In this document: positions 13,621 to 51,665 of the stretch, in pieces | Layout: each line of letters starts with the position of its first letter | Numbering within the stretch: the first letter of the stretch is position 1 | DNA from: Nitrosopumilus sp. | Lineage (GTDB): Archaea > Thermoproteota > Nitrososphaeria > Nitrososphaerales > Nitrosopumilaceae | DNA length: 64,000 nt | Reading direction: 5' to 3' | Assembly: GCA_965224195.1 (NCBI GenBank) | Contig: OZ245040.1 | Coordinates: forward strand, 1,312,001-1,376,000 | Notes under the pieces: model-generated | What the model saw: only the letters and a program-made list of their open reading frames with translations | The model's database searches: none | What the model was told of the DNA's origin: nothing | Program-made: the position numbers and the translations under genes

Positions 13621-14388
13621 ATGATTTCTGAGAGGACAATAATTATCTGCTCGTTTATTTTTGCACTGGCTGCAATCTCCTTTGCTTTTGAAGAGGTTTT
13701 TGAAGACATGTCAGGCCAGTATTTTATATCGCCAATAATTGAGCAAGATATGTACTTGGTAAGACAAGAACTTGCACAGCAGGCAGCATTTTTACAAAAC
13801 ATAAACAATGACTCGTACTTTCATGACATGATAAGTAAAACAGATGTTTATCAGGCCTTTGTAACAAAGTACCCACAACATCAGATTGACAGGACAGATA
13901 CAAACGATACCAGCATCATTTATACTGTATTTTATTCTGATTATGTAAGCCCCTATGCTGCAATTATGGTTGACTTTGAGATCTCATGGGTGGGAGCCAT
14001 ATCCACAGAACATAGATGCATGGTCGATGGCTATCACCTAAAAAAACACAACGCCATGCCTACTACAATGTGGATAAATGCAGGAGTATGCCAAGATGTC
14101 ATCTCTGAGAGCAGAGAAGAAAGGGGAGCCTCAGATGTAACGTATTTTGATACCGAGTTTGATGATATGTTACTTGATGCATTTGATGAACTCCAAGAAA
14201 GGATTGCAGGCAATTACTCGCCTGTCAGCGGCGTTACGCTAGATAGTGTAAATCTTGAAGGTGACGTCATAATACTGTTTGTAGATGTCTCAGATATGGA
14301 TTCATCGCAGCCATTGACAGGTGTAACTGATAGTGTTTTGGATCTCTTTGAGCATACAGTACCAATAGAGATTGTATTTCTTGAATAG
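13621..14388 (+). CDS. Secreted or membrane-anchored hypothetical protein
   Basis: N-terminal hydrophobic signal; starts a visibly GC-richer block. Confidence 0.75.
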   Translation: MISERTIIICSFIFALAAISFAFEEVFEDMSGQYFISPIIEQDMYLVRQELAQQAAFLQNINNDSYFHDMISKTDVYQAFVTKYPQHQIDRTDTNDTSIIYTVFYSDYVSPYAAIMVDFEISWVGAISTEHRCMVDGYHLKKHNAMPTTMWINAGVCQDVISESREERGASDVTYFDTEFDDMLLDAFDELQERIAGNYSPVSGVTLDSVNLEGDVIILFVDVSDMDSSQPLTGVTDSVLDLFEHTVPIEIVFLE

Positions 14389-14501
14389 CATGTCGTATTG
14401 TGCATTTATACTTGTTTTACGGATATTACTCCCCAGACTTTGCCGTCGTACCAATAGAGATTGTATTTCTTGAATAGCATGTCGTATTGTGCATTTATAC
14501 T
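14359..14501 (+). repeat. 54-bp exact direct repeat (14359-14412 and 14448-14501) enclosing a unique 35-bp insert
   Basis: GTACCAATAG...GCATTTATACT occurs twice around TGTTTTACGGATATTACTCCCCAGACTTTGCCGTC. Confidence 0.95.
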
Positions 14502-17500
14502 GCTACTTTTTACAGCATATTGCACTGTTACATATGGTACGGCATATGCTACAATAGTTGATGATCGTGAATTTCCCGAAGCCCCAATCAAAATTAAACC
14601 AGTTACATATGGTACGGCATATGCTACAATAGTTGATGCCTCAGAAGGCTCATCTATACCAGGATGTGAAACCACATCGACATGTTTTGTGCCTTACCAG
14701 ACAACAGTAGGCAAAGGAGAGACTGTCAACTGGCGCAACCCAACATCTACTGCACATACTGTCACAAGCGGCACACTTGGTACGCCTAATGGTGTGTTTG
14801 ATAGTGGCTTTATGAACCCTGGCACAGAGTATTCTTTTACGTTTGATAATACGGGAGACTATCACTACTTTTGCATGTTTCATCCGTGGATGAAAGGTGT
14901 CATCACGTCAACTGACAACCACAAGGCTGCAAAGCAAACGACTCCAGAGACTCAAAGGCATTGCAAGAACCCAAAACAATTTTTCATGCAGGGGATAGTG
15001 CAAAATACAATATTTGAGGATTTTGAAGTGTACTGCAGGTATGCCAAGGCATCACAAGATGATGCGTTCTCATATGATATCCAACCGCCAAAAAAACCTC
15101 AAAGGACAATGTATGGCATTACATCTGATGACGCACTTGGAACGCGCTCCCTTAATGCAATGCTTTCTGTAAAGCGCACATCAGACAGTAATGCAAACAA
15201 CTATGGTAGTACAAACAACGGCCAGCTGCATGTTGCATCGTTTGTGCCAAAACTGCATATGCTATCAGCTGATGTATATTCTAAGGACATTTCAGCTGCA
15301 AGCTACAGCGGGACTGGCGGCTCTACTACAAAAGTTACCATCATATATCATACCCAAGACAATGACCAAAATGCATTAATTATTACGCCTCACTATGTGG
15401 GAAACCTACACAGCAAGGCATACACGCTTGAGCAAAGCCTGAACACAAAGCGCATAATGCTTGAGAACACCGGACAGATGTCTTGGAAGCATATACAGTA
15501 TGACGTTAGGGACATTTACAACCAAAGCGGTTTTGGCAACTATGACTCTGATGTTGTCTTGTGGAGCCTGTACATTGGAGGCCAGTCATACACGTCATCT
15601 TTGGGCATTGCGTCATGGAGCATAAACATTGACAACCTGTTTGTAACTGATGGTACCTCAGATGCAATCCCGCCTGCATCATACCAGCTTGCAGTAGGTG
15701 TAAAGCCTGAAAACATCTTTTGCAAAAAAGACAAAACCCTTGTATTTAGGATATCTGATAGTGCACCAGTATGCATAAAGGACTCTAGCACAGAAAAAAT
15801 ATACAGTATAGGATATGCAATACCTGCACACACGACAGATGGCACGGCATTGTCTGAGAAGATAAAGTTAAAAAAACAGATGCTTGCATCAATTCTCACT
15901 GATCACTTTTCCCAAAAACCAGACATGTCTACGACCTCTTTTGCCAATGACATTGATGCATACAAGCATCGCATCGCATACAAGATATCTGTCCTAAACA
16001 AACTGGCATCGCCTTCTGGCAACATATCCCTTGACCGGGGGTTTGCAATGTCTACCGGCGGTAATTTTGGGGATGAAAGTTCATGGAATCTTAGAGAGTC
16101 AGGCGAATCATTTGGCATGATCCAAAGAGGCCCAGAATCTGCTACTGAAGCAGAACATGCAGGTTCGGACATATCCCTGCAGTACACTGATTATGTGGAA
16201 TTCTCAAAGACAAATGTGCATGTGATTGGAGTAGACGAACCAGATTTTGTAAAAAATGACGCCAAAAGCATCTATGTGATATCAAACGAAAACGACATCG
16301 CCGTACTTGATGCATCACATGCCAAAGGCCTTGAGATTTTATCTGAGACATCACCGCATAACGATGATGCAAAATCAATACTGCTATACCAAGACATGCT
16401 AATTGTCCTATCTGATGTTGATGAAAAGACGCAGATTACAATGCTTGATGCTGCCGTGTTTCCTCCTGCAAAAAAGCACCAGTTTGCAATTGATTCAAAG
16501 CTACACGATGTAAGGATGATACAAGATACAATCTATATAATTACCCGCTCAAGTGCGCCACAGTCACCTGTGCTATATGACATGATCCAAGGCACACATG
16601 TAATTGAAAGGCCTGCAATGCATTATTTTGAGCACAACCTAATGGCTGATTCCTTGTATACTGTTACTGCCATGCAGATGCAAGACGGTAATGTGCTAAA
16701 GGCCAGTTCTGACTCTTATGTACTAGGCCAGTATGATGTGGTCTATGTCTCAGAGGATAACATCTACCTTTCGTACGTACAGCCATACTCCCAGGCCTCG
16801 TCTGCACTCTTTGATGACGGGTTTTTCTTTGGGTATGCCATAGACAGCCTAAAGCCGCAACAGCTTGCATACCTGTACAGCCTGGCATCAGAGATTGGCA
16901 TGGGCTCTGACAGCATGGTAAAAGACGAGATGGCTGATGTAGTATTTGCAGCATTTGACAGGAATGATGTAGGAGACATAAAAGCTGGCCTGACTGATGC
17001 TGGTATGGATTTCTCAGTGTTTGGTGCCATGCCGCATACTGTAATACATAAGATTGGAGTTGATGAAACAGAGATAAACTATGTTGCATCGGCAAGCATA
17101 AAGGGAACACTGCTAAACCAGTTTGCACTTGACCAGAAGGGAGATGATACCCTCAGGGCAGTTACAAGCTTTTGGCAAGACGGCGTGCTCTCAAGCAACA
17201 TATATGTCTTAGATGATACACTAAAACTTGCCGGCTCCCTTGAAGGCATAGCGCCAGGCGAGACACTGCACTCTACGCGCTTTGCAGGTGACTGGTTGTA
17301 TCTTGTCACATTTAGGCAGGTTGATCCGTTCTTTGTAATAGATGTCTCCTCTGAACATCCAATGGTATTGGGGGAACTGAAGATACCTGGGTACTCAGAG
17401 TACCTGCAAAACTATGATGAGGGGCACGTCATTGGGATTGGAAGGGACACCAACCGCAACCAATGGGACCAGACAACTGATGCGGGCATCAAGATATCGA

Positions 17501-17868
17501 TGTTTGATGTGACAGACTTTGAGAATCCAAAGGAGACGCACAGCATAATAATAGGGGATCACTCAACAGCCTCTGTAGGACTGGTGGAGCACAAGTCCAT
17601 ACTCCTTGACAAAAACAAAAAGATAATCAGCATACCTGTAAGGTTTGGAAACGAACTGTTCTTCTACCTGTATACAGTAGATGACAAATACATGCTTCAT
17701 GAACACTCCAAGATACCACATACACTGGATCCTGCAAACCCACAGCATGTGCGCTCATTTTACATTAAAGACACACTGTACACTGTGACACCTGCAATGG
17801 TAAAGGCAAACAGCCTCCTTGAGCATGATTTAACCCATGGCAGTATATCCCTTGGCATGAAGAAATGA
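14461..17868 (+). CDS. Large secreted protein with a cupredoxin domain, a Cys-pair module and a C-terminal beta-propeller (Beta_propel/YkkA-like)
   Basis: HTVTSG...YFCMFHPWM type-1 copper site; FSKTNVHVIGVDEPDFVKND, YLVTFRQVDPFFVID and GELKIPGYSEYL propeller motifs; likely start ATG near 14479. Confidence 0.85.
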   Translation: MYFLNSMSYCAFILLLFTAYCTVTYGTAYATIVDDREFPEAPIKIKPVTYGTAYATIVDASEGSSIPGCETTSTCFVPYQTTVGKGETVNWRNPTSTAHTVTSGTLGTPNGVFDSGFMNPGTEYSFTFDNTGDYHYFCMFHPWMKGVITSTDNHKAAKQTTPETQRHCKNPKQFFMQGIVQNTIFEDFEVYCRYAKASQDDAFSYDIQPPKKPQRTMYGITSDDALGTRSLNAMLSVKRTSDSNANNYGSTNNGQLHVASFVPKLHMLSADVYSKDISAASYSGTGGSTTKVTIIYHTQDNDQNALIITPHYVGNLHSKAYTLEQSLNTKRIMLENTGQMSWKHIQYDVRDIYNQSGFGNYDSDVVLWSLYIGGQSYTSSLGIASWSINIDNLFVTDGTSDAIPPASYQLAVGVKPENIFCKKDKTLVFRISDSAPVCIKDSSTEKIYSIGYAIPAHTTDGTALSEKIKLKKQMLASILTDHFSQKPDMSTTSFANDIDAYKHRIAYKISVLNKLASPSGNISLDRGFAMSTGGNFGDESSWNLRESGESFGMIQRGPESATEAEHAGSDISLQYTDYVEFSKTNVHVIGVDEPDFVKNDAKSIYVISNENDIAVLDASHAKGLEILSETSPHNDDAKSILLYQDMLIVLSDVDEKTQITMLDAAVFPPAKKHQFAIDSKLHDVRMIQDTIYIITRSSAPQSPVLYDMIQGTHVIERPAMHYFEHNLMADSLYTVTAMQMQDGNVLKASSDSYVLGQYDVVYVSEDNIYLSYVQPYSQASSALFDDGFFFGYAIDSLKPQQLAYLYSLASEIGMGSDSMVKDEMADVVFAAFDRNDVGDIKAGLTDAGMDFSVFGAMPHTVIHKIGVDETEINYVASASIKGTLLNQFALDQKGDDTLRAVTSFWQDGVLSSNIYVLDDTLKLAGSLEGIAPGETLHSTRFAGDWLYLVTFRQVDPFFVIDVSSEHPMVLGELKIPGYSEYLQNYDEGHVIGIGRDTNRNQWDQTTDAGIKISMFDVTDFENPKETHSIIIGDHSTASVGLVEHKSILLDKNKKIISIPVRFGNELFFYLYTVDDKYMLHEHSKIPHTLDPANPQHVRSFYIKDTLYTVTPAMVKANSLLEHDLTHGSISLGMKK
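14527..14638 (+). repeat. 37-bp exact direct repeat (14527-14563 and 14602-14638) enclosing a unique 38-bp insert
   Basis: GTTACATATGGTACGGCATATGCTACAATAGTTGATG occurs twice; net +75 bp, in frame. Confidence 0.95.
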
Positions 17869-18344
17869 GCAGGCTTTGCTTTCTTACAAAGAAGAGGTTT
17901 GCAGTGCCCATACTTGTAATGGCAGGCATTGGAGTTTTATTTACTGCGATAATTTTTGCAGTTGCATTTTCATCGTTTCTTACTTTCGTGTCTGCAGAGT
18001 TTGCAAAGACATTTGGTCCTACATACAAGGATGTTGCAGTAAACAGGTGTCAGCTTTATGACAAAGGCTCAAGCGGCATATTCAACGGAACCTATTCAGA
18101 CGGCACAAAGAACTGGAACAATGCTAACTTCCCTGACAACAGATGCACGCACAGCATAATACTGCTTTTACCTGATAAGACAAAACCGATAACAGATGAG
18201 GTACAGTGCCATGGTCAGTATGATAAAATGGTACAACATACACGCAACGCTAATGTGGAGTTTTGCACAACAGAGAGCTTACAGGTGTGCCAGGACGCAC
18301 TGACGCTGATACATTATGATGAATTTAAAAAAGACGTTTGCTAA
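17865..18344 (+). CDS. Membrane-anchored Cys-containing hypothetical protein
   Basis: Overlaps the upstream stop (ATGA); N-terminal transmembrane segment. Confidence 0.7.
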   Translation: MSRLCFLTKKRFAVPILVMAGIGVLFTAIIFAVAFSSFLTFVSAEFAKTFGPTYKDVAVNRCQLYDKGSSGIFNGTYSDGTKNWNNANFPDNRCTHSIILLLPDKTKPITDEVQCHGQYDKMVQHTRNANVEFCTTESLQVCQDALTLIHYDEFKKDVC

Positions 18345-18666
18345 TGCAGCTTTGCTAACTGACTACACACATTACAGCCAGTCTTGTGCAGCAGTTTCTG
18401 CAACAATCAATGCGGCATGAAATGGTATTACCTGAATCACTTATATTATAAACCAAGTTCCTACCAAAAAACTTGAATCAGATAAGGACCATGCCACATC
18501 ATTGTTTAACCACATCCCAACTGACACACCTGAGATCATACAGATAGTTCTGTCGGGTTATCGTCAGCTAGACACAAAATATGAATTTTCTCTAAATTGA
18601 AAAATTTGAAACCAGATAGAATTTACTTGTATGTAATACAATTTCACAACATCAAATCAATTAAAT

Positions 18667-18885
18667 TTAAGTAATCAAATTTTGACTTTTAAAATCAAGA
18701 CATTTTTCATCAAATTCATTGAGATATTTTTTAGTGTTAATGTTTGCATCCATTATGTATATTTCACATGTTTCTGAATCAATTAGTTGCTGAGAATTGC
18801 TACTGTTAGTCATTACTTGTAATGCAAGAATGCTTACTAGCGCAATTATCACAATTATTGCAAATTTCCTAGAGTAAATGTCCAT
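18667..18885 (-). CDS. Small membrane-anchored protein
   Basis: 72-aa ORF with transmembrane segment and two Cys. Confidence 0.65.
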   Translation of the reverse strand: MDIYSRKFAIIVIIALVSILALQVMTNSSNSQQLIDSETCEIYIMDANINTKKYLNEFDEKCLDFKSQNLIT

Positions 18886-19230
18886 AAATCATACCCGTTC
18901 ATTTTGAACTTAAATCTAATGATTCGAATATTGAATTGTCTGTTTTATTGTAATTGTAAGGGGTTTTTATGGTACACTTTACTCTGCAATGTGTGACTGA
19001 TATTGTTGTTTGCTCAAATTGTGGTTTATCATACTCTACAAAAGAAAATGATCTTTGTACTCATTGTAACTTTACCAACAAACCTCGTACCTAAAATTAA
19101 TAGTTCTTGATATAGTTATTATCAGGATTAGAAAAAACTTCTGATGTGGGATTCAAAAAAGGTATTCACAAATGTGTGGAATGTGAAAAGAAGATCAAAG
19201 AAAATCCTGATGATGCAGGTATGTGTAGTA

Positions 19231-19328
19231 GATGAGTTGCGCAATTACAAGCAAAAATCTAACTTTTCTGTCATTTAATTCTTAATTTTATGGAATTGCA
19301 ATGAATTCTTCTTTCCATTTAATCTTGA
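19231..19328 (-). mobile_element. 98-bp terminal fragment of the ISL2-like element
   Basis: Matches 51665-51762, including the GATGAGTTG terminus preceded by TA. Confidence 0.9.
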
Positions 19329-19725
19329 TTAATGATATTTCCCTCTATGTAGAGTTTCATCCTTTGCTGTCATGGGTGAGACAATCTGAAGCAGATGAAT
19401 CATTACTAAATCACGAGCAAGGCAATTTTGACTTGGCTGAACTAGTAAAACGTGAAAATATTATAAATCTACAAGAGCAATTTTACAAAAAACATTTCTC
19501 AACCCGAGGACAAAATGATGAACAACGAAAACAATTTGCAAAAGAAGATTCTGGTAAAATGATTAATGAACAAGTGGAAAAATTACAAAATCTCTTTGAT
19601 GAAAGATCTCAGAAATACCAAAATGAAACAGATTATGGAGAGAATCTTGAGGAACAATCCGGGTATAATTTGACTTTCAAGCAATTACGGACATAATTTG
19701 TCTTGCAGTGTAGTCTGCTTTGTTA
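19323..19725 (+). pseudogene. Diverged 403-bp duplicate of the 3' part of the DUF922-like gene (9545-9947)
   Basis: Colinear at a constant offset of 9778 with scattered substitutions. Confidence 0.9.
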
Positions 19726-19871
19726 ATGGTAAAACGAGGTTTTTTTGGGTAAAGTAAGGTTACTAGCTTGTGTAGATTTCAGCTTGTGTGAATATTATAG
19801 TCTTCAGACAAAGCTGTTTTTACTCAAATTATATATTAGATATTTTTGTTTTGCAATTATGGGTGTCTTTA

Positions 19872-20369
19872 GTGATAACTGAAAACGACGTAAACGAATT
19901 ATTGACCAAATATACAGTAAAAGAATTTTTAGACTTGGTTGATGCTGAAACAGCATCTTTAGATTATAGATCCAAAGTTATAGTTGCTAATATCCGAATT
20001 GAACAATTAATGGAATGTATCATCATTAAAAATTTCAAGAACCATGAAGATTTAATTGAATTTGATTCTTCTAAAAAACAAAAAATCCTCTTTGGATTAG
20101 GAATACTTGGTAAAGACTTGAACTATTAACTCAAAATTACTAATCAAATACGAAACACATTTGCACATGAAATTAATCCAATAGAAAACAAAGTACCACA
20201 TCTCATAAAGAAATCCAAATTTTATGATAAAACTAAAGCATCCAAAACCGATAACCCAATTAATCAGGCTGTAAAATATGGGATGGTTGCAGGCATGATT
20301 ATAGGCCTGTTGACGAGGTATTTGGCAGAAATTCTTTGGGAAACTAATTCTAAGAATAAAAAGCAGTAA
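19872..20369 (+). pseudogene. HEPN/MtlR-like protein with premature TAA
   Basis: Reading through TAA at 20127-20129 gives IRNTFAHE (RxxxxH) and an open frame to 20369. Confidence 0.65.
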
Positions 20370-20380
20370 CAATCGCTAAA

Positions 20381-20820
20381 CTAGTTCAAATCTTGTAGAT
20401 TTGGTAATCTACATTTTAAAAAATTAGAAAAAGTTGCTTTAGGAAACAAAGTAAAGGTTGTAATATCCACAGGTGATTTTGAAAAGATTAGATGATGAGG
20501 ACAGAATATTTTATCGCAAACAAAAAAAAATCCAATAAATATGTCACCAGTATCAGGAAATTCTAACACAATATCTAAAAAGAATCGAATTGGATCAAAA
20601 ATATGAATCAGGACATCATAAAATAACTACACATAGCTTTCGAGCGTTTTTCATTACAAAGGTGTCACGTCACGATCCAAACTTGGCAAAATATTTTGCA
20701 GGGCAAGAACAATCAAGGGATCTTTTGATGTATGACAGGTTGACAGTAGATGAAAAGCTAGAAAACTATATCAAATTTGAGCCTGATTTATTGATAGGAC
20801 AAGTTGATTCCATAAAATGA
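20381..20820 (+). pseudogene. Tyrosine recombinase/integrase C-terminal remnant
   Basis: ITTHSFRAFFIT (HxxR), AKYFAGQ and LMYDR; upstream part degraded. Confidence 0.75.
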
Positions 20821-20919
20821 AATTATTAGATAATGTCAGGTGTGATAATTGTTTTTAATGCTCTGCAGGATGACACATAAAAATACTAGCATGATCTTTA
20901 AATCAAATCATAGGATCAG

Positions 20920-21738
20920 ATGATTGTTTTGGTTACAATGTATGTTGATGAATCAGGGTCAGAAAGCTACAAGGATTCTACCAAGTATTTTGTATTGTCA
21001 GGAATCATAGTTTCCGATGACAAAATAAAGAAGATTCAACGATCTTCTTTTGAATACAAACTGAAATATTTTATTGACAAATACATAGATTCAGAGATTC
21101 ACACACATGACATCTATCAATCTAAAAATGATTTTTCAAGTTTGAATTTAATCAAGAAACAAGAGATACTAAATGCATTATACAAAATGATCAACACACT
21201 GAATATTACCATAATATCTATAGTAATTAACAAAGAGTTGTTGAAATCACAATATCCAAGTTGGAAGGTAATTGATACTGCATGGATATATCTGATAGAA
21301 CGTTTTGACAAATTTTTAGAATGTAATGACGAGATTAATGGCAGTATCAAAATCGACAAGAGTACACATCGATCTCAGAGATGCATCTTTGATGTAATTG
21401 ATGATGTAAGAAAAAATGGAACTGACTTTCAACGAAGGGCATGTATAGATAATATCCAATTTGTTGATTCTTCTGGTGTTGAGGGAATTCAGATTGCAGA
21501 TGCTGTTGCATACTGTTCATTGATGCATGCAAAGAACAACAATGCCTTTGAAGATTATTGGAATTTGATCAAGTCTAAAATTCGACAAAGCAGTGATGGA
21601 CACACAAAAAGTTATGGATGGAAAGAATTTCCAGGATTTTTAAAAAACAAGAGCATGCAACAAGGAACCCCCCATTCAACACACTCTCTCGTAATGCGAC
21701 CCGCATCACTTGACATTAATACAGCAGCATACTATTAA
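20920..21738 (+). CDS. DUF3800 family protein (RNase H-like fold)
   Basis: YVDESG, EIHT, GIQIADAVAY and YGWKEFP motifs. Confidence 0.85.
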   Translation: MIVLVTMYVDESGSESYKDSTKYFVLSGIIVSDDKIKKIQRSSFEYKLKYFIDKYIDSEIHTHDIYQSKNDFSSLNLIKKQEILNALYKMINTLNITIISIVINKELLKSQYPSWKVIDTAWIYLIERFDKFLECNDEINGSIKIDKSTHRSQRCIFDVIDDVRKNGTDFQRRACIDNIQFVDSSGVEGIQIADAVAYCSLMHAKNNNAFEDYWNLIKSKIRQSSDGHTKSYGWKEFPGFLKNKSMQQGTPHSTHSLVMRPASLDINTAAYY

Positions 21739-21954
21739 AATGTACATTTAAGGATTAACGAGGTATGATAAGAAATATGGATCTTCTCCAAATTTGAACC
21801 GAAATTTACGAAAAATTTTCGGAACTAGTAAGTTTGCGGTAGATAATTCTGCCTGGAAAGTGTCGGTAGATACCTAATAACGCCAATCAAAAACGATATT
21901 TGTGTCAGGCAACAAGTACGTAAATTCTGTATCTGATGAGTATTTTTTAAAACA

Positions 21955-22158
21955 ATGGTAAAGCCTAGCATTATTTATTATCAAATTGATTATGATGAAG
22001 ATTCTAAAATCTATACTGGTTATTGCTCAAGTATGAGACCAGTACGATTTTCAGACAAAGATGAATCCAAAGTAAAAGAACTAGTGGAAGATGGAATAGA
22101 TGTATATCTAGAGAAATATCCTAATTTCTCTGATAGTTTCAACTCAAAAGAGGTTTAA
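21955..22158 (+). CDS. HicB-like antitoxin
   Basis: YQIDYDEDSKIYTGYC......FSD.....VKELVEDGIDVYLE pattern. Confidence 0.6.
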   Translation: MVKPSIIYYQIDYDEDSKIYTGYCSSMRPVRFSDKDESKVKELVEDGIDVYLEKYPNFSDSFNSKEV

Positions 22159-22170
22159 TTATTTTGTGGA

Positions 22171-22421
22171 ATGAACAGCGTGTAGACTCCAAATCACGAT
22201 ATTTATCGTGTGAAAAAATCAATAAAAGTTTTTGAGAAATTAGGTTTTGGAATTACAGGTACTAAATCTGTTCTACTTTCTTTTTCAGATGAAAAAAAAT
22301 AGAAGATTTTATGCTGCCAAAAGCAGATGAGGGAGTATTATCAAAACACATTACCGATATTTTGGAAAAGATTGGTTTACTTATTGCCTACTTTGATTTT
22401 CTATATGATAGTACAGAATAA
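22171..22421 (+). pseudogene. Degraded HicA-like toxin
   Basis: IKVFEKLGF.ITGTK... and ...MLPK..EGVLSKHITDILEKIGL, with a stop and frameshift. Confidence 0.5.
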
Positions 22422-22610
22422 TTTACAAAACAAGAAACAGTAATTCAAAATGCGGCCAAGTCTGATCTACCTACACTTTCCAGGCAGAATTATCTACCGC
22501 AAACTTACCGGTTCCCAAAAATATGTACACTGTTCAATCTGCGGCGGTTTTGCCTTTTTTTAGGTACAAAATTTTGCTTATGGTGGATTGTCTGAATACG
22601 TATCAGAACC

Positions 22611-22811
22611 TTATTTTTCGTCTGCATGATTTTTAGGGTCTAAAATATACTCTACATCATCAGCTATCTGACGCGGAATAGCAGGCAGCGCAGTATCATG
22701 ACCTCTGAGGCCACTCCCCTTACTGCGTTGTATGTCCTCGATGGACAGTTGCAGTATTTCAAAGGCATCCTTCATTCTTTTCATCATTTCTTCGTATTCT
22801 GTGTGTATCAT
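22611..22811 (-). CDS. Hypothetical protein
   Basis: 66-aa ORF. Confidence 0.45.
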   Translation of the reverse strand: MIHTEYEEMMKRMKDAFEILQLSIEDIQRSKGSGLRGHDTALPAIPRQIADDVEYILDPKNHADEK

Positions 22812-22847
22812 TGTTTCAAAAAAATAAGGGTTAGGATGTTTTAAAAA

Positions 22848-23990
22848 TTAGACTATTCTATAGTAACCTGAGAAGTCTTCATTACCGGAGGTATCGGTTC
22901 CGGAAGATGGTTCGTAGGTTGTTTCAACTCCCCACAACAAAAGATTACCTGACTCTAAGCCACATACGCAGCTTTGATTATTGACATCAAATGCGCGGTT
23001 TATTACCACATCATTACATCTTTGTCCCTGTTGTGAAAGGTTCCTAACACCTATTTTTGCCTCCTCAAAGAATACATCAGTACATCCTATCCAGGCAGCC
23101 CATCCCATACTCTTTTCAGAAGTAAAGTCAGTTACCCATGATATGCTTGCACCTGAATTAGGTGCTGCAGTACCTATGCTACCTGCTCCACTGGAATACA
23201 TATGGACACTCCAATCATCACATTGTCTGTGGGATTTGTCAAAGGTAATTGTTGTACCTTCAAGAACTGCAGCAAAAAGGAATCTGGAGGAAGATTCTAT
23301 CTGAACTAATCAAAACAGCTCACAAGTACAGCAAGATTAACATGCAGAAAATATCAGTTGACTCATCAACAATCCACAATAAAAAAGGGGCGACGTAACC
23401 GGATATGACGGATTCAAGAAGATTCTAGGCACAAAGATACATGTTGCAGTAGAGCAAAATGGATTGCCAATATCAATTGTAATGAGTCCTGCAAATAAGC
23501 ATGACAGTACCAAATTCATTGACGTTATGGAAAACATTTCAGAATTCATAGATGATAAAATGGCTCAACAAATTATTTCAGTCTATGCAGACAAGGGTTA
23601 TGATGCTGCATACATTAGAAATTATTTGAGATGTAATGGAATTGGATGTTGTATTCCATACAAGAGTAATTCCAAATTTATCGTACCAAAAAAACATACA
23701 GAACAATACAGCAAGACAAGGTTTGTAGTGGAACGGTTCTTTGCATGGTTGAAAAATGGTTTGCACAGAACAAGAATTAGATATGAGAAGAATTGTGATA
23801 ACTATCTGGGATTTGTTTACTTGGCATGTATCATGATGTATTGGAGGGTTTTAGGATAAGTTGATAATCTGTCTCCACAAACATGAGGATCAGATTCCAC
23901 TCCGCCTTCATATCCAAAAGATTCCTGTACTCCAATGATTCCAACTAAAACTAGTAGAATTACTGCCCACACAAATCTGATTTCTCATAA
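22848..23990 (-). pseudogene. Secreted protein gene interrupted by an IS5 copy
   Basis: Signal peptide IRFVWAVILLVLVGIIGVQESFG...VCGDRL at about 23866-23985; C-terminal part at 22848-23256. Confidence 0.55.
23257..23865 (+). mobile_element. IS5-family element (two-ORF frameshift type), 5'-truncated
   Basis: LQQKGIW..ISVDSSTI, A6G4 slippery site at 23381-23390, GTKIHVAV, ADKGYD, RFVVERFFAWLK and IRYEK motifs. Confidence 0.9.
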
Positions 23991-24168
23991 GAACCTCATA
24001 AAGTTTTCTACTCTTGAGTTCCGTTATCTAATGTGGTAACCGTCTTGATGGCAATTGTCTTTAGTAGATAACAGTAATTTGATAAGCATAAGTTGATTTC
24101 TTTTTCCTGTTATCTCTGATGAGTATCTGAGATCGCGATCTATAAATCTTATGGATAAACTGTTCTTT

Positions 24169-26414: not shown

Positions 26415-26419
26415 AAAAT

Positions 26420-36748: not shown

Positions 36749-36860
36749 CTTGTTTTTTTGTGGAATTTAAACTGGCTATAAGCATTATGAAAATTAAGGA
36801 AATGGTTCAATATTTTATATAAAAATTAATTACACCATGATATCTGGAATAAAGTAAATT

Positions 36861-41558: not shown

Positions 41559-41602
41559 CAAAAAAATCTTTTTACTCTATCCAAGTAGAAAAAAATTAAA
41601 TA

Positions 41603-43528: not shown

Positions 43529-43597
43529 TAAAATCTAGCTCTTTGATATTTTCTATTTCACGTTTTATCTATAATTCATTCATGATTAGATACATCA

Positions 43598-44956
43598 TTG
43601 AAGTTTGTAGTTGATCAACATGTAGAGGACATTGAGATGCCTGAAAATCTCAAATTAAACACGTTTTTACAGGAATTCCATTCTGATTGCCCTCATTCTG
43701 AATGTAGTTTTGGATTCTATGGATTTGCATTTGGACAGTCTCCATTTCCAGTTCCTAAACAAATTCAAGAGGCGCTAATCAAAAATGCTGACAAAGGTGC
43801 ATATGCTGCAGTTCCTGGAATCCCTGAATTAAGATCTGCCATATCCAAATACAATAAACATTATTTTGGAATGGACGTAGCTCCTGAAAGAATCTATGTT
43901 GGCCCTGGCACTAAAGAACTAATTTTTAATCTTTTAGAGATTTTACATGGGACTGTGATATTGCCAACTCCTGCATGGTTAGGATATCTTCCACAAATTA
44001 GATTTTTGAAAAAAAACTACCACATGCTACCTACTCGTGCAAATAAAAAAATTTCTCCAAACGATTTGAGAAAATTAGCATTACGATTACAAGACCGACA
44101 AAAGATTCTGATACTAAATAATCCTCATAATCCTACTGGTCTATTGTATGATGAATTAGAATTAGAAGAAATAGCAGATGTGTGCAGAGAACAAAACATA
44201 GCAGTAATTTCTGATGAGATTTACGCTCTTACTACATATGATTTTTCAAAATTTGTAAGTATGGGAAAAATTTACCCTGAAGGGACCTTTGTAACAAACG
44301 GATTATCAAAATCTCATGCTGCAGGAGGATATAGACTAGGATATGTTATTTTCCCACAACATGCTATTGATCTAAGAAGACAATTTAAAAAAATACTTGC
44401 AACTGAATACACTGCGGTATCTACTCCAATACAACATGCTGCTGTTGCAGGATTTGAAATCACTAAAGAAATGGATGAATATTTTGATGTAACTCGAAAC
44501 ATTCATCAAATAATGGGGGACTATACTTATCATGCTTTAACTGCTATAGATGGTGTCAAAGCAACAAAACCTGATGCGACATTTTATCTCTTGGCTGATT
44601 TTAATGCATTTGCAACTGATTTACAAAAAGCAAAAATTAATACATCTCAAAAATTATCTGAATCTCTGATTATTCATCCTTATCATACTGCAATTGTTGG
44701 TGGAGATAGTCTTGTTTTGGAAAGAACTGATTTTAGTGCTAGAATTGCATATGTTGATTATGATGGAGCCAAAGTATACCAAAAATATCTTGAAAACAAA
44801 CCAAAATCTCATTCTGAAAAAATGGAATTTGTAAAAAAGAATGCTCCAAAAGTTGTAGCAGGCATTGACATGATTGCTGATTTCTTTACTAATCTTAGAA
44901 AAGACACACTACAAGAATTACAGGTTAAAAAAAATTCCATGATTGCTTCAAATTAA
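43598..44956 (+). CDS. PLP-dependent class I/II aminotransferase
   Basis: NNPHNPTG, DEIY and GLSKSHAAGGYRLG motifs. Confidence 0.92.
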   Translation: MKFVVDQHVEDIEMPENLKLNTFLQEFHSDCPHSECSFGFYGFAFGQSPFPVPKQIQEALIKNADKGAYAAVPGIPELRSAISKYNKHYFGMDVAPERIYVGPGTKELIFNLLEILHGTVILPTPAWLGYLPQIRFLKKNYHMLPTRANKKISPNDLRKLALRLQDRQKILILNNPHNPTGLLYDELELEEIADVCREQNIAVISDEIYALTTYDFSKFVSMGKIYPEGTFVTNGLSKSHAAGGYRLGYVIFPQHAIDLRRQFKKILATEYTAVSTPIQHAAVAGFEITKEMDEYFDVTRNIHQIMGDYTYHALTAIDGVKATKPDATFYLLADFNAFATDLQKAKINTSQKLSESLIIHPYHTAIVGGDSLVLERTDFSARIAYVDYDGAKVYQKYLENKPKSHSEKMEFVKKNAPKVVAGIDMIADFFTNLRKDTLQELQVKKNSMIASN

Positions 44957-44998
44957 TTTCAATTTTTCATATTCATCTATGTTTATTATATGCAAAAG

Positions 44999-45682
44999 TT
45001 AAATGCCAATTTCTTTTTTTTCGACAGATCTATTATTTTCTGATGCATTGATAGGTTTTTTTGGAATTTTAAAAAAGAATGTTGTTTGAATATTTTCTTC
45101 ACTTTCAACCCAAATTTTACCTCCTAAACCTTCAACGATACCTTTACAAATTGCTAAACCTAAACCGCTCCCTTCTTTTTTCCTCTTTGATGGTGTATCT
45201 ACTTGATAGAATTTTTTAAATAATTCCTTTTGGTTTTCATCTGGAATTCCTAAACCATTATCTTGAATAAAAAATTCTATATTTTTTAAATTATTTTTCA
45301 TTCCTATTACAACACATCCTGTATTTGGAGAAACATAATCTATTGAATTTTTAATTAAATTAGAAAATACTTGATTGATCCTATCTTTGTCACTAAGAAT
45401 TTGAATATCTTCATTGAAATTTGCAGTTATTTCTATTTTTTTCTCAATTGCTATTGGATCAAATTCTTTAATTAACCCATGTAGTAACTCTGAAACATCT
45501 ATATTTTCTTCATTAAAAACCAATTTTCCTAAATCTAATTTTTGTGTTGTTAAAATATCTCCAATTAATTTTTCTAGTTTAATTGTTGATGTATAAATCT
45601 CATCTACTGCATCTCTTTGACTTTCATTTAATTTTCCAAATAATTCTTCTTTTTGTAACATTTGGACAAGTTCAAAGAACAT
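44999..45682 (-). pseudogene. Histidine kinase fragment (HATPase_c without H-box or sensor)
   Basis: N-box QVFSNLIKNS, DNGLG, F-box and GSGLGL present; no phospho-acceptor His motif. Confidence 0.7.
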
Positions 45683-45772
45683 TCATCTCTAATAATATAA
45701 TACAATATTACTTGTTAGAATCAAACTCGTCTTCCTCTTTATATACAAAATTACCTTAGTTTTTCTATAGAT

Positions 45773-46509
45773 ATGGATTCAACCTATTCTAAAATAAAAA
45801 CAGCAATTCCGGGAGTAGATTCCGTAATATCTGGCGGATTAAAGCCTGGATGTTCAGTAACTGTGTCAGGACCTCCTGGTAGTGGAAAAACCACCTTTGG
45901 CTTACAATTTTTACATTCAGGAGCAAATAACTTTGATGAATCTGGGATTTACGTTACACTATCTCAAAATATTGAAGAGGTGAAAAAGGACTGTAAATTA
46001 TATGGCTGGGACTTTGATAATTTGATATCTCAGGATAAGATATTGATGATTGATGCTAGGCCATTCAAAATGCAAGACGAATTGATTGGCAAAGATGACT
46101 CATTATATCGTGGAGAGCAATTACCGTTTGAACATTTAACAAAATTGATACTTAGCAGTATTAAACGAGTTGAAGCTAAAAGAGTTGTAATTGATTCTGT
46201 TACAATTCTTGCCATGCAATATTCGGATAAATTTTACATGAGACAAGGATTACAGGGAATGGTTCAGGCATTAGAAAATTTTGGAGTTACTAGTTTGATA
46301 CTATCAGAATATTCTGAAAATAACGAAATCCCATTAGGTGGTTTGTAACTTCTGGAATTATTCATTTACGTCATACTAGAATTGAAGATACGATGGAGAG
46401 AACAATTCAAGTCACCAAAATGAGGGGAATTAAACATAGTGAACAAATTCACCCAATCGATCTTAATTCTGACGGCTTACAATTATTGCATCCGAGATTA
46501 ATGCCTTGA
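45773..46509 (+). pseudogene. KaiC/RAD55-like ATPase, frameshifted near 46338
   Basis: GPPGSGKT and VVIDS motifs; shifted frame continues WFVTSGII...TKMRGIKHS to TGA at 46509. Confidence 0.8.
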
Positions 46510-47733
46510 TTATTTCTTTTTTCTAATTTGCTGTGCAATTAATGGTAAAAAGGCTCCAACATCAGATACAATTCCTAATGCTTGCCAAGTTCCTCTATCC
46601 ATAAGTTTAGTGACAGTTGGTTGACTGATATCTACAACAATCACTTTAACATTTGCTGGAAGCATATTCCCTGTTGCAATAGAATGTAACATGGTAGAAA
46701 TCATAATAACCATACTTGCATCTTTTAGTACTTTTTTGTATTCTCTTTGAGCTTGTGCAACATCTATAATTACATCTGGTAATGGTCCGTCATCTCTAAT
46801 AGATCCTGCTAATACGAATGGTACTTTGTTTTTTACACATTCATACATTATTCCTTTGGTTAATTTTTTACTTTTTACCATGTTTGCAATAGAGCCTGCT
46901 TTGAACACTGCATTGATTGTATCCATATGATTCCTATGTCCATGATATGCTAGTGTTGCATCATGCACATTCATTCCTAAAGACGTGCCTAACGTCGCAT
47001 ATTCGATATCATGCACAGCTAATGCATTTCCAGCTAAAACTCCGTCAATGTATCCTAATCTAATTAATTCTGATACTGAATCATCTGCACCCGTGTGGAC
47101 AATCGCAGGACCGCCAACAATTATAATTTTTCCTCCATTCTTTTTTGTATTGTAAATATCATCTGCAACTTGTTTTGCAATATGTTGTGTTGGTCTTTCA
47201 CTAGAGTTTGAGCTTCCCATAAATTCAAAAACATTAACTCCACCCCTTGGGCGTTCTGGTGGTGTAATTTTGATACCGTTCTCACCTACAATTATTTGAT
47301 CACCTTTTTTTACATCTCTAACTGTAACACAAAATGCCCTGTTCCCTTTTACAACTATGCATTTATCCATCATCATGTTTTCTACTTGAATCCACTTTTC
47401 TTTATGAAAAACTTGAGTATGGTTATTTGTTGTACTGTAAAAGTTATCTGGCATGACATAATTTTTTGGAGATTTTTTTAAAGTGATTTGTTGTTGGATT
47501 TTTGATACTGCTCCTAATCTGTACACTGTCTCTAAAATTTCATCTAGGTGTTTTTGATTTTTCCCTGTAATTAATAATCGTGCAAATGATTGATCTTTTT
47601 TCTTTTTTCCAATTTCTATTTCTTGAACCTCAAATTCTCCTTGTAAATCCATAATTTTATCAAAAATCTTAGTCAAAATTGAAGAATCAATTAAATGTCC
47701 TTCTACTTCAATTTCTTGAAAAAATTTACTCAT
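46510..47733 (-). CDS. TIGR00300 / LOR-SDH-like protein (ornithine cyclodeaminase-like)
   Basis: GHLIDS, PDNFYSTTN, GNALAVHDIE and GSIRDDGPLP motifs. Confidence 0.88.
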   Translation of the reverse strand: MSKFFQEIEVEGHLIDSSILTKIFDKIMDLQGEFEVQEIEIGKKKKDQSFARLLITGKNQKHLDEILETVYRLGAVSKIQQQITLKKSPKNYVMPDNFYSTTNNHTQVFHKEKWIQVENMMMDKCIVVKGNRAFCVTVRDVKKGDQIIVGENGIKITPPERPRGGVNVFEFMGSSNSSERPTQHIAKQVADDIYNTKKNGGKIIIVGGPAIVHTGADDSVSELIRLGYIDGVLAGNALAVHDIEYATLGTSLGMNVHDATLAYHGHRNHMDTINAVFKAGSIANMVKSKKLTKGIMYECVKNKVPFVLAGSIRDDGPLPDVIIDVAQAQREYKKVLKDASMVIMISTMLHSIATGNMLPANVKVIVVDISQPTVTKLMDRGTWQALGIVSDVGAFLPLIAQQIRKKK

Positions 47734-47784
47734 TTATTACGTCTGAACTATATCATAACTAAAGCTTACGTTTTTTTTGTGAGC

Positions 47785-48162
47785 CTAAATAGGTAAGATT
47801 ACTTTACCTTCAAACTTTGGAATATTGTCTGATTGGAATGCTTTTTCCAATATTTCTTTCTGTTCTTTAGTGACCCCCTGAACAATTGTTTTAGACGCAC
47901 CTGTTTTATCCACTAGTGCAAGAATATAGCCACTATTATCAGTCAGTACAAAACCTGCTGATTCATCAACAAATGCATATAGATTTTCTTTGCCAACAGG
48001 TGACCATATGTTCGATTTATTTGCAGCAAGAGCTAATGCGGGCATGGCTTTACCATTTGTTAAAGTGTTAAGGTATTCTCTTGCCTCTGCTACTCTCTTT
48101 TGACCTAATTTTAAAGCCTGAAAATATTGCATGATTCCAACTAATGTAATTGTTATAACCAT
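47785..48162 (-). CDS. Conserved hypothetical protein
   Basis: ORF; likely start at MQYFQ. Confidence 0.75.
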   Translation of the reverse strand: MVITITLVGIMQYFQALKLGQKRVAEAREYLNTLTNGKAMPALALAANKSNIWSPVGKENLYAFVDESAGFVLTDNSGYILALVDKTGASKTIVQGVTKEQKEILEKAFQSDNIPKFEGKVILPI

Positions 48163-48209
48163 TTTACTTCTACTAAAGATTTGTATATAATCTCAAAACA
48201 ATACAAAAT

Positions 48210-48503
48210 ATGCCTCTGACAAATAATGTGATTGTCAAATTAAATGAAATTACTACTATTGTTGAAGATAAATCAAAACTTACAGAATCTGAAATTAATG
48301 AAATTAAATTAATTTTCAAAGAACTGGTTGAAAAAAATGAGCGATATGATCTTGATGAAATAGAATTTTGGTTTAAAAATGAAGGTAATTGGACTACTAG
48401 GGAACCTCGAATTAGAATAGTAAATCTTGCAAATTATGTCCAAGACAAATATCAACAAACAGCCCATCTTAGAATCATATCTGATGATGATTGTGGTTGT
48501 TGA
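48210..48503 (+). CDS. Conserved hypothetical protein
   Basis: 97-aa ORF. Confidence 0.75.
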   Translation: MPLTNNVIVKLNEITTIVEDKSKLTESEINEIKLIFKELVEKNERYDLDEIEFWFKNEGNWTTREPRIRIVNLANYVQDKYQQTAHLRIISDDDCGC

Positions 48504-48505
48504 AA

Positions 48506-48745
48506 CTAAGTCTCTAATTTTTCTAACAATCTGCCAACAATTTTAGCATTTTCTGTTCGCTCATCCATTATTACTTTAATCCGAATATCATTTTTGGTGC
48601 CATTTGAAATTATTTGGAAATATTCTTCATCTAGATCATTATTTGCTTGTAACCTTTTGATTACTTCAAATAATATTCCTATGACTTGTTTTTGAGCATC
48701 AATTAATTCATCTTTTTCAGCTTCTGACATGTTATTTACTCTCAA
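48506..48745 (-). CDS. Hypothetical protein
   Basis: Coupled to the HD-domain gene. Confidence 0.7.
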   Translation of the reverse strand: MRVNNMSEAEKDELIDAQKQVIGILFEVIKRLQANNDLDEEYFQIISNGTKNDIRIKVIMDERTENAKIVGRLLEKLET

Positions 48746-49265
48746 TTATATTTCTAAATAATTCTTTTAGTTTTGGATTGGTAATCCCTTTCTTTGCAGA
48801 TTGATAAAATGATTCTAGTTGTTCTTTAGAATAACCTCCCTCTTGGTATATTTTGGCTTGTAGGGCCATCTCTAATCTATCAAGTTGATGTACTATCTGA
48901 GATTCGGGAGAACTATTTTCCCGATATTCTTTCCACAAGTTCTCATATTGAGATTTTATTGAATTAGGCAAATCTTCTAAAATTTTTAAAAATGCAGTAT
49001 TTTCAATTTTATTCTTTTTCTCAAAATCTATCTGACCTGGAGTATAATCTCCTATTTTTGATTCAGCTAAATCATGTAGTAATATCATCTTGAGAATTTT
49101 CTCTGAATTGTAATTTTCCATATCCGATACTATCATACCCATCATTGCCATGGAATACGAATGATCAGCAACTGATTCAGGATTCGCTATAGATAATTTA
49201 TCAATCCATCCTTGCCGTAGAATTTTTTTTAAACCTATAGCAGTTTTGAAAAAATCTATTATCAT
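48732..49265 (-). CDS. HD-domain 5'-deoxynucleotidase-like hydrolase
   Basis: RQGW, ESVADHS, LHDLAE..GD and DRLE motifs. Confidence 0.92.
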   Translation of the reverse strand: MIIDFFKTAIGLKKILRQGWIDKLSIANPESVADHSYSMAMMGMIVSDMENYNSEKILKMILLHDLAESKIGDYTPGQIDFEKKNKIENTAFLKILEDLPNSIKSQYENLWKEYRENSSPESQIVHQLDRLEMALQAKIYQEGGYSKEQLESFYQSAKKGITNPKLKELFRNIIESK

Positions 49266-49854
49266 GATATTACATCATTTCGAATCACATAATAGTTATT
49301 TCAAATTTAGTAAATTATTGAAAATCTACACTAAAACGGGAGATGATGGAAATACAGGCTTGCAAGGAAATTACAGAATAGGCAAATCTCATCCCAGAAT
49401 AATTTCATATGGTACGGTAGATGAGGCAAATGCTGCACTTGGCATTGTTTTATCAAATTTACTAGATAGTGATGTAAATGCTGTTTTGACTGAAATTCAA
49501 AATGATTTATTTTTGCTTGGTGCTGATCTTTCTAATCCCAATCTTAATGATCTTAAAAATAGAGTTTCTTTAGAAATGATAGAAAAATTGGAACAATATA
49601 TTGATAAATTTGAACTAGAATTGCCCCCTTTGACAAATTTTATACTACCAGGAGGGGATCCTTCTGCTGCACAATTACATTATGTGAGAACTGTTGTGAG
49701 AAGGGCAGAATCACAAACTGTTCTACTTAGTGAAAAAGACGAAATTAACTCAAATTGTATAAAATATCTTAATCGTTTATCTGATCTATTTTTTGTAATG
49801 GGTCGTCTTATCAATAAAAGAAAAAACATAGACGATATTCCTTGGAAGATCTGA
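49246..49854 (+). CDS. pduO: PduO-type cob(I)alamin adenosyltransferase
   Basis: KIYTKTGDDG.T, GTVDE, FILPGG and YLNRLSDL motifs; likely start TTG at 49318. Confidence 0.93.
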   Translation: MKKSIIMILHHFESHNSYFKFSKLLKIYTKTGDDGNTGLQGNYRIGKSHPRIISYGTVDEANAALGIVLSNLLDSDVNAVLTEIQNDLFLLGADLSNPNLNDLKNRVSLEMIEKLEQYIDKFELELPPLTNFILPGGDPSAAQLHYVRTVVRRAESQTVLLSEKDEINSNCIKYLNRLSDLFFVMGRLINKRKNIDDIPWKI

Positions 49855-49897
49855 AAAGACAAACTTTAATTCCTCAACATTATTCATTTTTTTAAGT

Positions 49898-49974
49898 GCC
49901 GAGGTAGCTCAGCCTGGAAGAGCACTCGGCTGAAGACCGGGCTGTCGCTTGTTCAAATCATGCCCTCGGCACCA
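49898..49974 (+). tRNA. tRNA-Phe (GAA) with encoded CCA
   Basis: Acceptor stem GCCGAGG/CCTCGGC, anticodon loop CTGAAGA, T-loop TTCAAAT. Confidence 0.93.
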
Positions 49975-50473
49975 TTTTACATTGAAAAGGCATAGGTCTA
50001 TTTTTGAAATCCCCCTTCAATATTATTAAAAAACTTGATATTGTCAAATTGATAAAATCTTACATAGCACTACCATGTAATTTCTTAAAAGTTATTTTTA
50101 AGATAATTTAGTAATTTTCAAATAAGAGTAAACCTACAATTCAAAGTAATGGTACAATGATATTTTCAAATAGTGTATCTGTAACTAATGTATCTGTATC
50201 TGGCATATACCTCATAATATTATACCATTATGCGGGAGATGATATTATTGGTATTGATTATTCTTTACCTTTTATGGTTAGTTAACAATAATCATAACAC
50301 ATGTGGTTCTGTCAAGTTTTGAGGATCAGAACACTATAGTCTGTCAGAACCATTTCTTTGAGAGATTCGACATGACTTTGATTATTTTAGCTCAATTTCC
50401 AATCCTCTTTTCAAGAATTTAAGACAAGACCAGACAAGCTGGCAGAACCCAAAAATAGGAAATATTATTTACT

Positions 50474-51665
50474 GTAAAAATTAAAGTTTGGTGTGAACTG
50501 CCTTTTTTTATACTTGCATTGGCTCTAGTCGGAGTCTCATCTGTGGCATATGCTGATAATACGCCGCAAGGCGTATCACTAACACGTAACGATAATGGCA
50601 CGGCCACACTGTCATGAAATGCACAAGATGGTGTTACTCAATACATCATAAAGAGTGCCTGTCTAGCTACCACAAATAATGATGGTAGTAAAATAAAGGG
50701 CAAAATAGCACTAGATGGTGATGTACAATCACATACCTTTGATGCTGCTGATGAGAAATCTTGCAAGGTTAGTATCCGTACATTAGATGAAAATAATGTC
50801 AGATCAGACAATGTAAAGATAGTCATGGCAAGTAACGAGTCCACTGGAGAGTTAGTACAGGATATCAACAACAGATACACTCGTACGCCTAGCTTTGACC
50901 AAGGTCTAAAGCCAACCTCTGTAACTGCTACGGCATGGCCTGATGATACAGCAACTGTAACATGGGCTACACCATCAAACACTGGTGGTAGAACCGTTGA
51001 GTCATACAATGTAAAGGAGACAGCTGACTGCTTTAACAACTTGGCACATTCTGAACCAACATATGAAGAAAGTGTTGATGGCAATACCTTGAGCATTGAG
51101 ACTGGTCCGGCATCACCAAACGCTGATGACTGCATATTTCAGGTTCAAGCAGTCTATGCTGGCGACCTTCAATCTATGTGGTCTTCACGTACAGGCACAG
51201 ATACCTCATACCGCGATGCATATGGCGGCGGCAAGCTAGGAAAAGTCACAAGCTTTTCTGCCACAGCAGTAAAGGATGGTAACGGTGCAGACTTTACAGT
51301 AGAGTGGAATCCACCTGCAAACGTTAGTGACGTTCCAGTAGACAGATACCATGTCAATTTATGTGTAGAGTCTAGCAAGTCAAAATACAGTCAGATCCTC
51401 TCAGGAGGTGATGCCTCGTACACTGCTACAATAAGTGACGTGTCCAAAGACGAATTCCGCCATCCCGCTCCAAGCCATTGAGATCCCATCCTATCGCGCT
51501 ACAATAAGTGACGTGTCCAAAGACGAATTCCGCCAAACCAAGTTCTATTCTTCTGGCACGGATTTCACGAATGCGGAAAAAACCAAACGTGGTGAGGTAA
51601 TTCTCGACGCCAACGATCCTTTTGTGTGTACTGTTACAGTAACTGCAGTAGGTGAAGGCAACTAG
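50474..51665 (+). pseudogene. Secreted fibronectin type III repeat protein, disrupted
   Basis: Signal-like segment; ATLS*NA (TGA at 50615), ATVTWATP..YNV and VEWNPP..YHV; frameshifting insert at 51463; ends at the IS. Confidence 0.75.
51425..51535 (+). repeat. 38-bp exact direct repeat (51425-51462 and 51498-51535) enclosing a unique 35-bp insert
   Basis: GCTACAATAAGTGACGTGTCCAAAGACGAATTCCGCCA occurs twice around TCCCGCTCCAAGCCATTGAGATCCCATCCTATCGC. Confidence 0.95.

Follow-up and report, generated by a model that had tools for sequence, protein, structure and literature searches.

Off-target integration by Cas1-Cas2 into the chromosomal DNA of Escherichia coli, possibly seeding new CRISPR arrays, has been termed "neo-CRISPR" formation (Nivala, Shipman & Church 2018, Nat Microbiol 3:310), as related in passages of PMC6698737, PMC7054753, PMC9456107 and bioRxiv 10.1101/148544; the last of these, in the passage that cites Nivala et al., calls the evidence for natural off-target events "circumstantial" and places it in two other species. 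Sites resembling those of IHF raise the off-target frequency in E. coli (according to part of PMC9456107), and the off-target, non-CRISPR sites used in vitro by Cas1-Cas2 of Pyrococcus furiosus have repeat features in common (according to part of PMC6698737). The 64,000-nucleotide (nt) stretch analyzed here (the window: Nitrosopumilus sp. assembly GCA_965224195.1, contig OZ245040.1, or C1, positions 1312001-1376000; window coordinates count from its first letter) carries three comparable units, each a spacer-sized insert between two copies of a host segment, and they belong to a set of 41 on the same contig. Comparison of sequences indicates that these units very probably arose when the Cas1-Cas2 enzymes of the organism itself integrated spacers off target (non-canonical integration). 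The assembly (G000; 2.07 Mb in two contigs, 33.6% GC) encodes archaeal AmoA and represents an ammonia-oxidising archaeon.

The original prediction, made from the letters of the window alone, had described three units with exact duplications (54+35, 37+38 and 38+35 nt); their coordinates and the 100% identity of the copies were confirmed, and the units lie in or at two host genes as follows (edge matches refer to the repeat-end motif discussed below; aa, amino acids; ORF, open reading frame):

14359..14412: unit 1, copy 1, 54 nt, left edge matching the motif at 6 of 7 positions
14413..14447: unit 1, insert, 35 nt, spacer-sized
14448..14501: unit 1, copy 2, 54 nt, 100% identical to copy 1
14461..17868, + strand: host gene of units 1 and 2, encoding a 1135-aa protein with cupredoxin and beta-propeller domains (PF09826 at 5.5e-109, PF00127 at 2.3e-07)
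14527..14563: unit 2, copy 1, 37 nt, inside the 1135-aa ORF, directly past the hydrophobic N-terminus
14564..14601: unit 2, insert, 38 nt
14602..14638: unit 2, copy 2, 37 nt, 100% identical to copy 1
50825..51665, + strand: fn3-domain gene, broken by unit 3 into ORFs 50825-51481 and 51435-51665
51425..51462: unit 3, copy 1, 38 nt, in the fn3-domain gene, left edge matching the motif at 7 of 7 positions
51463..51497: unit 3, insert, 35 nt
51498..51535: unit 3, copy 2, 38 nt, 100% identical to copy 1; the displaced C-terminal coding part reaches 51665

The duplicated segment of unit 1 holds both a stop and a start codon, so the upstream gene ends in copy 1, which carries the last nine codons and stop (14386-14388) of a 255-aa ORF together with a duplicate of the downstream gene's start, and the downstream gene begins in copy 2, where the reading frame of the 1135-aa protein opens with its ATG (14479-14481) and initial codons. 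The insert and one repeat copy of unit 2 amount to 25 extra in-frame codons. Unit 3 adds 73 nt and shifts the reading frame, so that the ORF terminates at 51481; its excision in silico lengthens the ORF from 287 to 324 aa, measured stop-to-stop. None of the three inserts has a further significant match in the genome, the sole extra match being one of 17 nt (E 0.003).

Units of this kind recur across the chromosome. When the large contig was scanned for direct repeats, mismatches allowed, at periods of 40-130 nt, 33 of 49 isolated pairs had a period of 70-76 nt, a clustering far above chance. Curation started from 60 loci; 49 of these showed periods of 62-92 nt, and the set of 41 units was left after eight were removed: three collagen-like protein repeats near C1:1073-1074 kb, four loci with exact cores of 12-30 nt and inserts of 54-68 nt, and the locus at C1:196381. 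Window units 1 and 2, being neighbours, fail the filter for isolated pairs yet count among the curated 41. Duplications of 35-39 nt account for 30 of the 41 units (35 nt in two, 36 in eight, 37 in ten, 38 in seven and 39 in three); outlying lengths are 25-34 nt in six units, at least two of which have diverged copies and two of which are exactly 30 nt long, and 42-54 nt in five. Inserts measure 34-38 nt in 33 of 41 units (full range 29-45 nt), and the two copies are identical in 30 units and differ by one mismatch in 11. The inserts are unrelated to one another, as are the duplicated segments, apart from chance matches of 10-11 nt; the prediction that the inserts are unrelated and without a match elsewhere in the window thus holds, for mutual relatedness across all 41 units and for the three window inserts across the genome. 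No third repeat copy at 0.55 identity or above (the level of the excluded protein repeats) was found at any unit, the highest being 0.52, and with just two copies per unit, and "repeats" that vary from unit to unit and from the canonical ones, the units are not CRISPR arrays proper. They are concentrated within 100 kb of an array (20 of 41 units, 11.9 expected; p 0.006 in a post hoc test), which could reflect either local preference or the tolerance of variable regions, and the initial 680 kb of the contig hold only two.

The locus removed at C1:196381 has a similar counterpart at G007:C1 1537562, in a relative without a Cas1 match; both are pairs of 25-31-nt direct repeats around a spacer of approximately 32-37 nt. 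The presence of the pair in that relative suggests that C1:196381 is probably another conserved element, consistent with its removal.

The genome contains three cas1 and three cas2 genes, without internal stops, each beside an array:

Array A: 90 repeats of 36 nt, spacers mostly 36-37 nt, with a type I-G system (Cas4/Cas1 fusion, Cas3g, Csb1, Csb2)
Array B: 69 repeats of 30 nt, spacers mostly 36-37 nt, with a type I-B system (Cas1b, Cas4, Cas6, Cas7, Cas5)
Array C: 132 repeats of 37 nt, spacers mostly 35-36 nt, with a type I system that falls below subtype cut-offs (Cas7, Cas5, Cas3, Cas1, Cas2, Cas4)

The array periods (71-76 nt in A and C, 65-68 nt in B) form the same two classes as those of the dispersed units. 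Duplications of 35-39 nt agree in length with the 36- and 37-nt repeats of A and C, and the two of exactly 30 nt with the repeats of B. Mean GC content of the inserts (0.413) is that of the array spacers (0.404-0.423, n=288) and not that of the genome (0.336).

The left edges of the 41 units are enriched in G at position +1, CA at +5/+6 and C at -2. With the transcribed sense judged from the cas-gene layout and the repeat ends, the canonical repeats finish with ATTGAAGC, ATTGAAAC or ATTGAAAT, which on the opposite strand are GCTTCAAT, GTTTCAAT and ATTTCAAT; the last 8 nt of the CRISPR repeat are ATTGAARC, or GYTTCAAT on the other strand. Both ends of each unit were scored without offset against the three canonical repeat-end 8-mers, and mean best-end identity was 4.20, compared with 3.52 at random sites (standard deviation (sd) 0.19; maximum 4.22 in 3000 draws). 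A degenerate form, GYTNCAAT, with seven specified positions, is matched at six or more positions by 11 of 41 units (null mean 2.1) and at all seven by four (null mean 0.16); this form was partly suggested by the data, whereas the test that gave 4.20 used canonical ends only. In the relative G009, the same comparison over 21 units gave 4.19 versus 3.16 (sd 0.26), a value reached by none of 3000 null draws. The edge motif is a preference and not a requirement, and no leader-like flank was recognised at the units. The left-edge similarity originally proposed (YACW^GYWMCA) is partly confirmed: the edge resembles the end of the resident repeats, and a good match is confined to roughly a quarter of the units.

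Four relatives were scanned in the same way, in one to two sampled blocks each, from 61 genomes drawn from the genus, 24 of which have a Cas1 match. With the parameters used for relatives, 32 of the 46 isolated pairs in G000 have periods of 70-76 nt, and the relatives compare as follows:

G009 (types I-G and I-B): 800 kb, 19 of 22 isolated pairs at period 70-76 nt
G007 (no Cas1 match): 800 kb, 2 of 8, each of them an imperfect protein repeat in frame
G051 (type I-G only): 400 kb, 2 of 5, which are two candidate units
G017 (type I-B only): 400 kb, 2 of 9, which represent a single poly-G element twice

G017 also has one unit of 33+35 nt near its own array. In these small samples of related genomes, the unit class tracks the presence of adaptation genes, with varying density. 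Units are many in G009, which has both types, and few where I-G or I-B stands alone, a pattern that singles out neither module. The poly-G element of G017 (C1 1221661, 1305769 and 1318828) consists of a direct repeat of approximately 40 nt around a poly-G tract, which mimics the period of the units and is a different thing.

Among other explanations, the one set out in the original prediction, that short DNA is placed in genes by a dedicated and undescribed system related to Cas1 or derived from a casposase, which might for instance diversify surface proteins by writing foreign peptides into them, is very unlikely. It draws on the location of two of the three window units in or at a gene for a secreted cupredoxin/beta-propeller protein and of the third in an fn3 protein, on the eight units genome-wide that are in frame and keep the ORF open, and on several Cas1 matches of approximately 410-440 aa in other genomes of the genus, taken to be casposase-like by length alone. 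In this genome, however, neither a casposase-like Cas1 nor any Cas1 outside the cas operons was found, all three cas1 genes lying in ordinary cas operons beside arrays. Nor is there any bias toward preserving reading frames, the period being divisible by three in 14 of 41 units, which is the chance level. Of the 41 sites, 17 are without an ORF of at least 100 aa, eight are in-frame insertions, seven split an ORF, six lie at an ORF edge and three are ambiguous. Unit 3 breaks its gene, and at seven sites the in silico removal of one copy and the insert lengthens the ORF. The units share their dimensions and edge motif with the resident arrays, which makes extra machinery, or a new insertion system, unnecessary.

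Duplication with filler DNA independent of Cas proteins, by template switching or by end-joining repair that copies a short sequence, is highly improbable, despite the fact that eight of the 41 inserts copy other loci of the same chromosome, as templated insertions would, and that no protospacer-adjacent motif (PAM) is evident. Seven of these eight are matched over their whole length (34-39 nt, 0-3 mismatches), and the similarity goes no further than the edges of the insert; the remaining one has a partial match of 28 nt. Ordinary genes served as sources, namely two HsdS copies, four giant fn3 proteins, a PD-(D/E)XK-like pair, GINS51, Cdc6/Orc1, a DUF7482 protein and two ORFs (137 and 66 aa), and the one of these two ORFs that was scanned belongs to no Pfam family. 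Filler DNA would be expected to give broad lengths instead of duplications mostly of 35-39 nt around inserts of 34-38 nt, and it leaves unexplained the repeat-end motif, the spacer-like GC content and the lack of units in the 800 kb of G007.

The self-derived inserts speak for off-target integration by the resident Cas1-Cas2. The 288 array spacers have zero matches to the chromosome outside the arrays; self spacers would be lethal in a working array and harmless at a site that gives rise to no CRISPR RNA (crRNA), which may be why they occur in units and not in arrays. Three of the eight self sources fall within a 40-kb stretch (C1 195937-234901) that also contains cdc6/orc1 and GINS51, and this stretch may be a chromosomal hotspot of spacer capture near a replication origin, a post hoc suggestion from small numbers. 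A foreign source may have been glimpsed for insert 1: sequencing runs X1 and X2 each include a further short contig (124 and 119 nt, respectively) that agrees with 14412-14444 except at three positions, is flanked by unrelated sequence and is absent from the assembly. Its depth is 22 in X1 and 84 in X2, compared with approximately 89 and 385 for the host, and it is a candidate external source of insert 1. When the 41 inserts and 288 spacers were compared with the sampled parts of the relatives, only orthologues of two self sources and two short matches of borderline E value were found.

An artefact of assembly or sequencing, through chimeric reads or mis-joined repeats, has a probability close to nil. 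Mis-assembly can yield exact short duplications around unrelated filler, and the best-matching runs may be the assembly's own source; in Logan contigs, however, the junctions of unit 1 from first copy through insert to second copy are spanned in two studies (14383-14477 in X1 and X2 of one study, 14359-14477 in X4 of another), the X1 and X2 contigs carry unit 2 as well, and repeat-only contigs have roughly double depth. The one-base divergence between copies in 11 of 41 units, the occurrence of the same class in the assembly of another species, and the agreement of unit dimensions with the genome's own arrays also argue against an artefact.

Empty alleles were found for three units. A contig of X3, a run from a third study, joins 14526 to 14602 with exactly 75 nt skipped, indicating a near-identical strain without unit 2. 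The empty form of unit 3 is a 255-aa protein (P0001, 97% identical) with a single copy and no insert, residues 1-213 of which align to the upstream ORF and residues 198-255 to the downstream ORF of the broken gene. The unit at C1:1639458 lies inside a copy of an insertion sequence (IS) transposase gene of the IS4/5 type, a colinear paralogue of which holds the 37-mer once and lacks the insert. For unit 1 no empty allele was found: among DNA orthologues of window positions 14100-14900 in 30 relatives, only the cupredoxin part was matched (70-79% identity), so that this comparison yielded no empty site for unit 1 or unit 2. The unit at C1:739057 likewise has no clean empty site, since the similarity ends 1-2 nt short of the unit and, beyond it, is picked up again in another genome, and it is not used as support. 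The insertions are secondary and real.

To call them fixed, as had been proposed, is too strong, given the strain without unit 2 and the contig depths at unit 1, where the insert contig (54.1 in X1, 272 in X2) reaches 61% and 71% of the flanks (88.7 and 385), and the contig of the 54-mer repeat (140 and 665) approximates the sum of insert and flank contigs. Depth here is one figure per contig and a weak measure, and it gives a hint that unit 1 is polymorphic in the source sample, with filled and empty alleles mixed. If unit 1 is polymorphic within the culture, either the insertion is recent or it is reversibly lost by recombination between the long direct repeats.

That the units are decayed former arrays, or a family of small mobile elements with long target duplications, has next to no probability: an orphan pair of array-A-like repeats near C1:1626225 demonstrates that array fragments do exist in the genome, but the duplicated segments of the 41 units are host coding sequence, unrelated to each other, with no likeness to decayed CRISPR repeats and no resemblance to canonical repeats beyond 8-10 nt, the inserts have no common sequence and hence no common element, and in empty alleles the segment occurs just once. 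The pair near C1:1626225 is degenerate, has a period of 74 nt, is distant from the arrays and has the appearance of an orphan piece of a mini-array instead of an off-target unit.

Mobile DNA abounds in the window. A DDE_Tnp_4 transposase gene (51722-52642, - strand) directly follows unit 3, and copies of a multicopy IS4/5-type element are found at 23269-23873 and 57435-58170; another copy of this element is the one at C1:1639458 that bears an off-target unit. A 14-nt tandem repeat in at least four copies occupies window positions 905-988. An exact 61-nt pair in the window (55843/56074, period 231, region 55843-56134) was rejected as a member of the class, being a 77-aa in-frame tandem protein repeat within a 585-aa ORF on the minus strand.

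Off-target integration by Cas1-Cas2, the first of the two origins offered in the original prediction, is strongly supported by the presence of three adaptation modules, the array dimensions, the edge motif shared with the repeat ends and the empty alleles. Several observations weigh against it. No consistent PAM or other shared flank was found beside the eight self-derived sources in either orientation, and no targets from which to define PAMs were found for the array spacers, in the chromosome or, for arrays A and C, in phage records. No foreign source of an insert was found in phage records, where blastn with both window regions gave one chance hit (E 0.9) and then none, or among viral and metagenome contigs searched with exact 22-mers of inserts 1 and 3; arrays A and C also have no match in phage records, so that the test for foreign sources has little power. 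Many sites are without resemblance to a repeat, only the 11 of 41 units noted above reaching six of seven positions of the degenerate motif, and some duplications are off the ruler (42, 43, 46, 49 and 54 nt, the last being window unit 1). An adaptation module is evidently insufficient for high density, with two candidate units in G051 and one in G017, in 400 kb each, and the comparison of relatives covers one to two blocks per genome, in genomes that are not independent.

We infer that the insertions were catalyzed by Cas1-Cas2. A spacer-sized prespacer would enter ordinary chromosomal DNA by two staggered strand transfers (transesterifications), with a tendency toward sites similar to the final 8 nt of the repeat. 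The leader-distal end of this pseudo-repeat would be recognised by sequence and the other cut measured from there, the ruler of the integrase setting it approximately 36-38 nt away, or approximately 30 nt in the case of the I-B module; repair of the gaps would duplicate the stretch between the cuts and yield the order target-insert-target. Slipping of the ruler may account for the duplications of 42-54 nt, including unit 1. Each site would be used only once for want of a leader, and with arbitrary host sequence as flanking "repeats" the inserts are probably never processed into crRNA, so that self-derived inserts would be tolerated at units and not in arrays.

It is possible, and we suggest it tentatively, that off-target integration is frequent and probably ongoing in these archaea, where it would have a mutational cost in split genes and in-frame peptides and leave a fossil record of unselected uptake, self spacers included. 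Approximately 40 events in one genome constitute a natural data set on recognition by the integrase, for which one repeat end and a ruler appear to be enough. The fitness cost of adaptation becomes measurable, at least seven ORFs being split, and capture before selection becomes visible, with eight of 41 inserts self-derived versus none of 288 array spacers. The units also offer a way to watch the possible seeding of new arrays, and filled and empty alleles that differ among near-identical strains could serve as cheap strain markers.

Among described systems, casposases (family 1 of Ca. Nitrosopumilus koreensis; PMC8464041) are similar in being Cas1-family integrases that duplicate their target site, in the same archaeal group. 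Casposons, however, are large, bear terminal inverted repeats and carry genes of their own, whereas the inserts here are 29-45 nt long and mutually unrelated, in a genome in which no Cas1 was found beyond the cas operons. Ectopic acquisition in Streptococcus thermophilus and S. mutans (PMC7999890 and PMC8265633) is alike in that integration occurs away from the leader-proximal repeat, but those events use true array repeats and the targets here are scattered, non-CRISPR chromosomal DNA. Cas1-Cas2 of P. furiosus (the same part of PMC6698737) is, like the enzymes proposed here, an archaeal type I integrase with sites that share repeat features and spacing set from repeat-internal elements; that case is an in vitro plasmid assay with a 30-nt repeat, and this one concerns inherited chromosomal products, some of them in genes, with repeats of 36-37 nt.

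The closest parallel is neo-CRISPR. As described in the passages cited at the outset, it has in common with the present units a spacer-sized insert, a duplicated non-CRISPR chromosomal flank, sites that resemble part of the native locus and active-looking adaptation genes in the genome. Unlike the situation in that report, the resemblance here is to the leader-distal 8 nt of the repeat, with no leader-like flank found. The neo-CRISPR work was performed in E. coli overproducing Cas1-Cas2, whereas here there are 41 natural events in one archaeal genome of approximately 2.07 Mb, of a class that recurs in a second species. The literature searched, passages of PMC6563490 included and supplements aside, yielded nothing on off-target spacers dispersed in Nitrosopumilus or other Thaumarchaeota. 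The units are the same kind of event as off-target integration in E. coli; the novelty lies in how many natural and inherited events there are, their archaeal I-G/I-B setting, their occurrence in a second species, the self-derived inserts and the polymorphism of the alleles.

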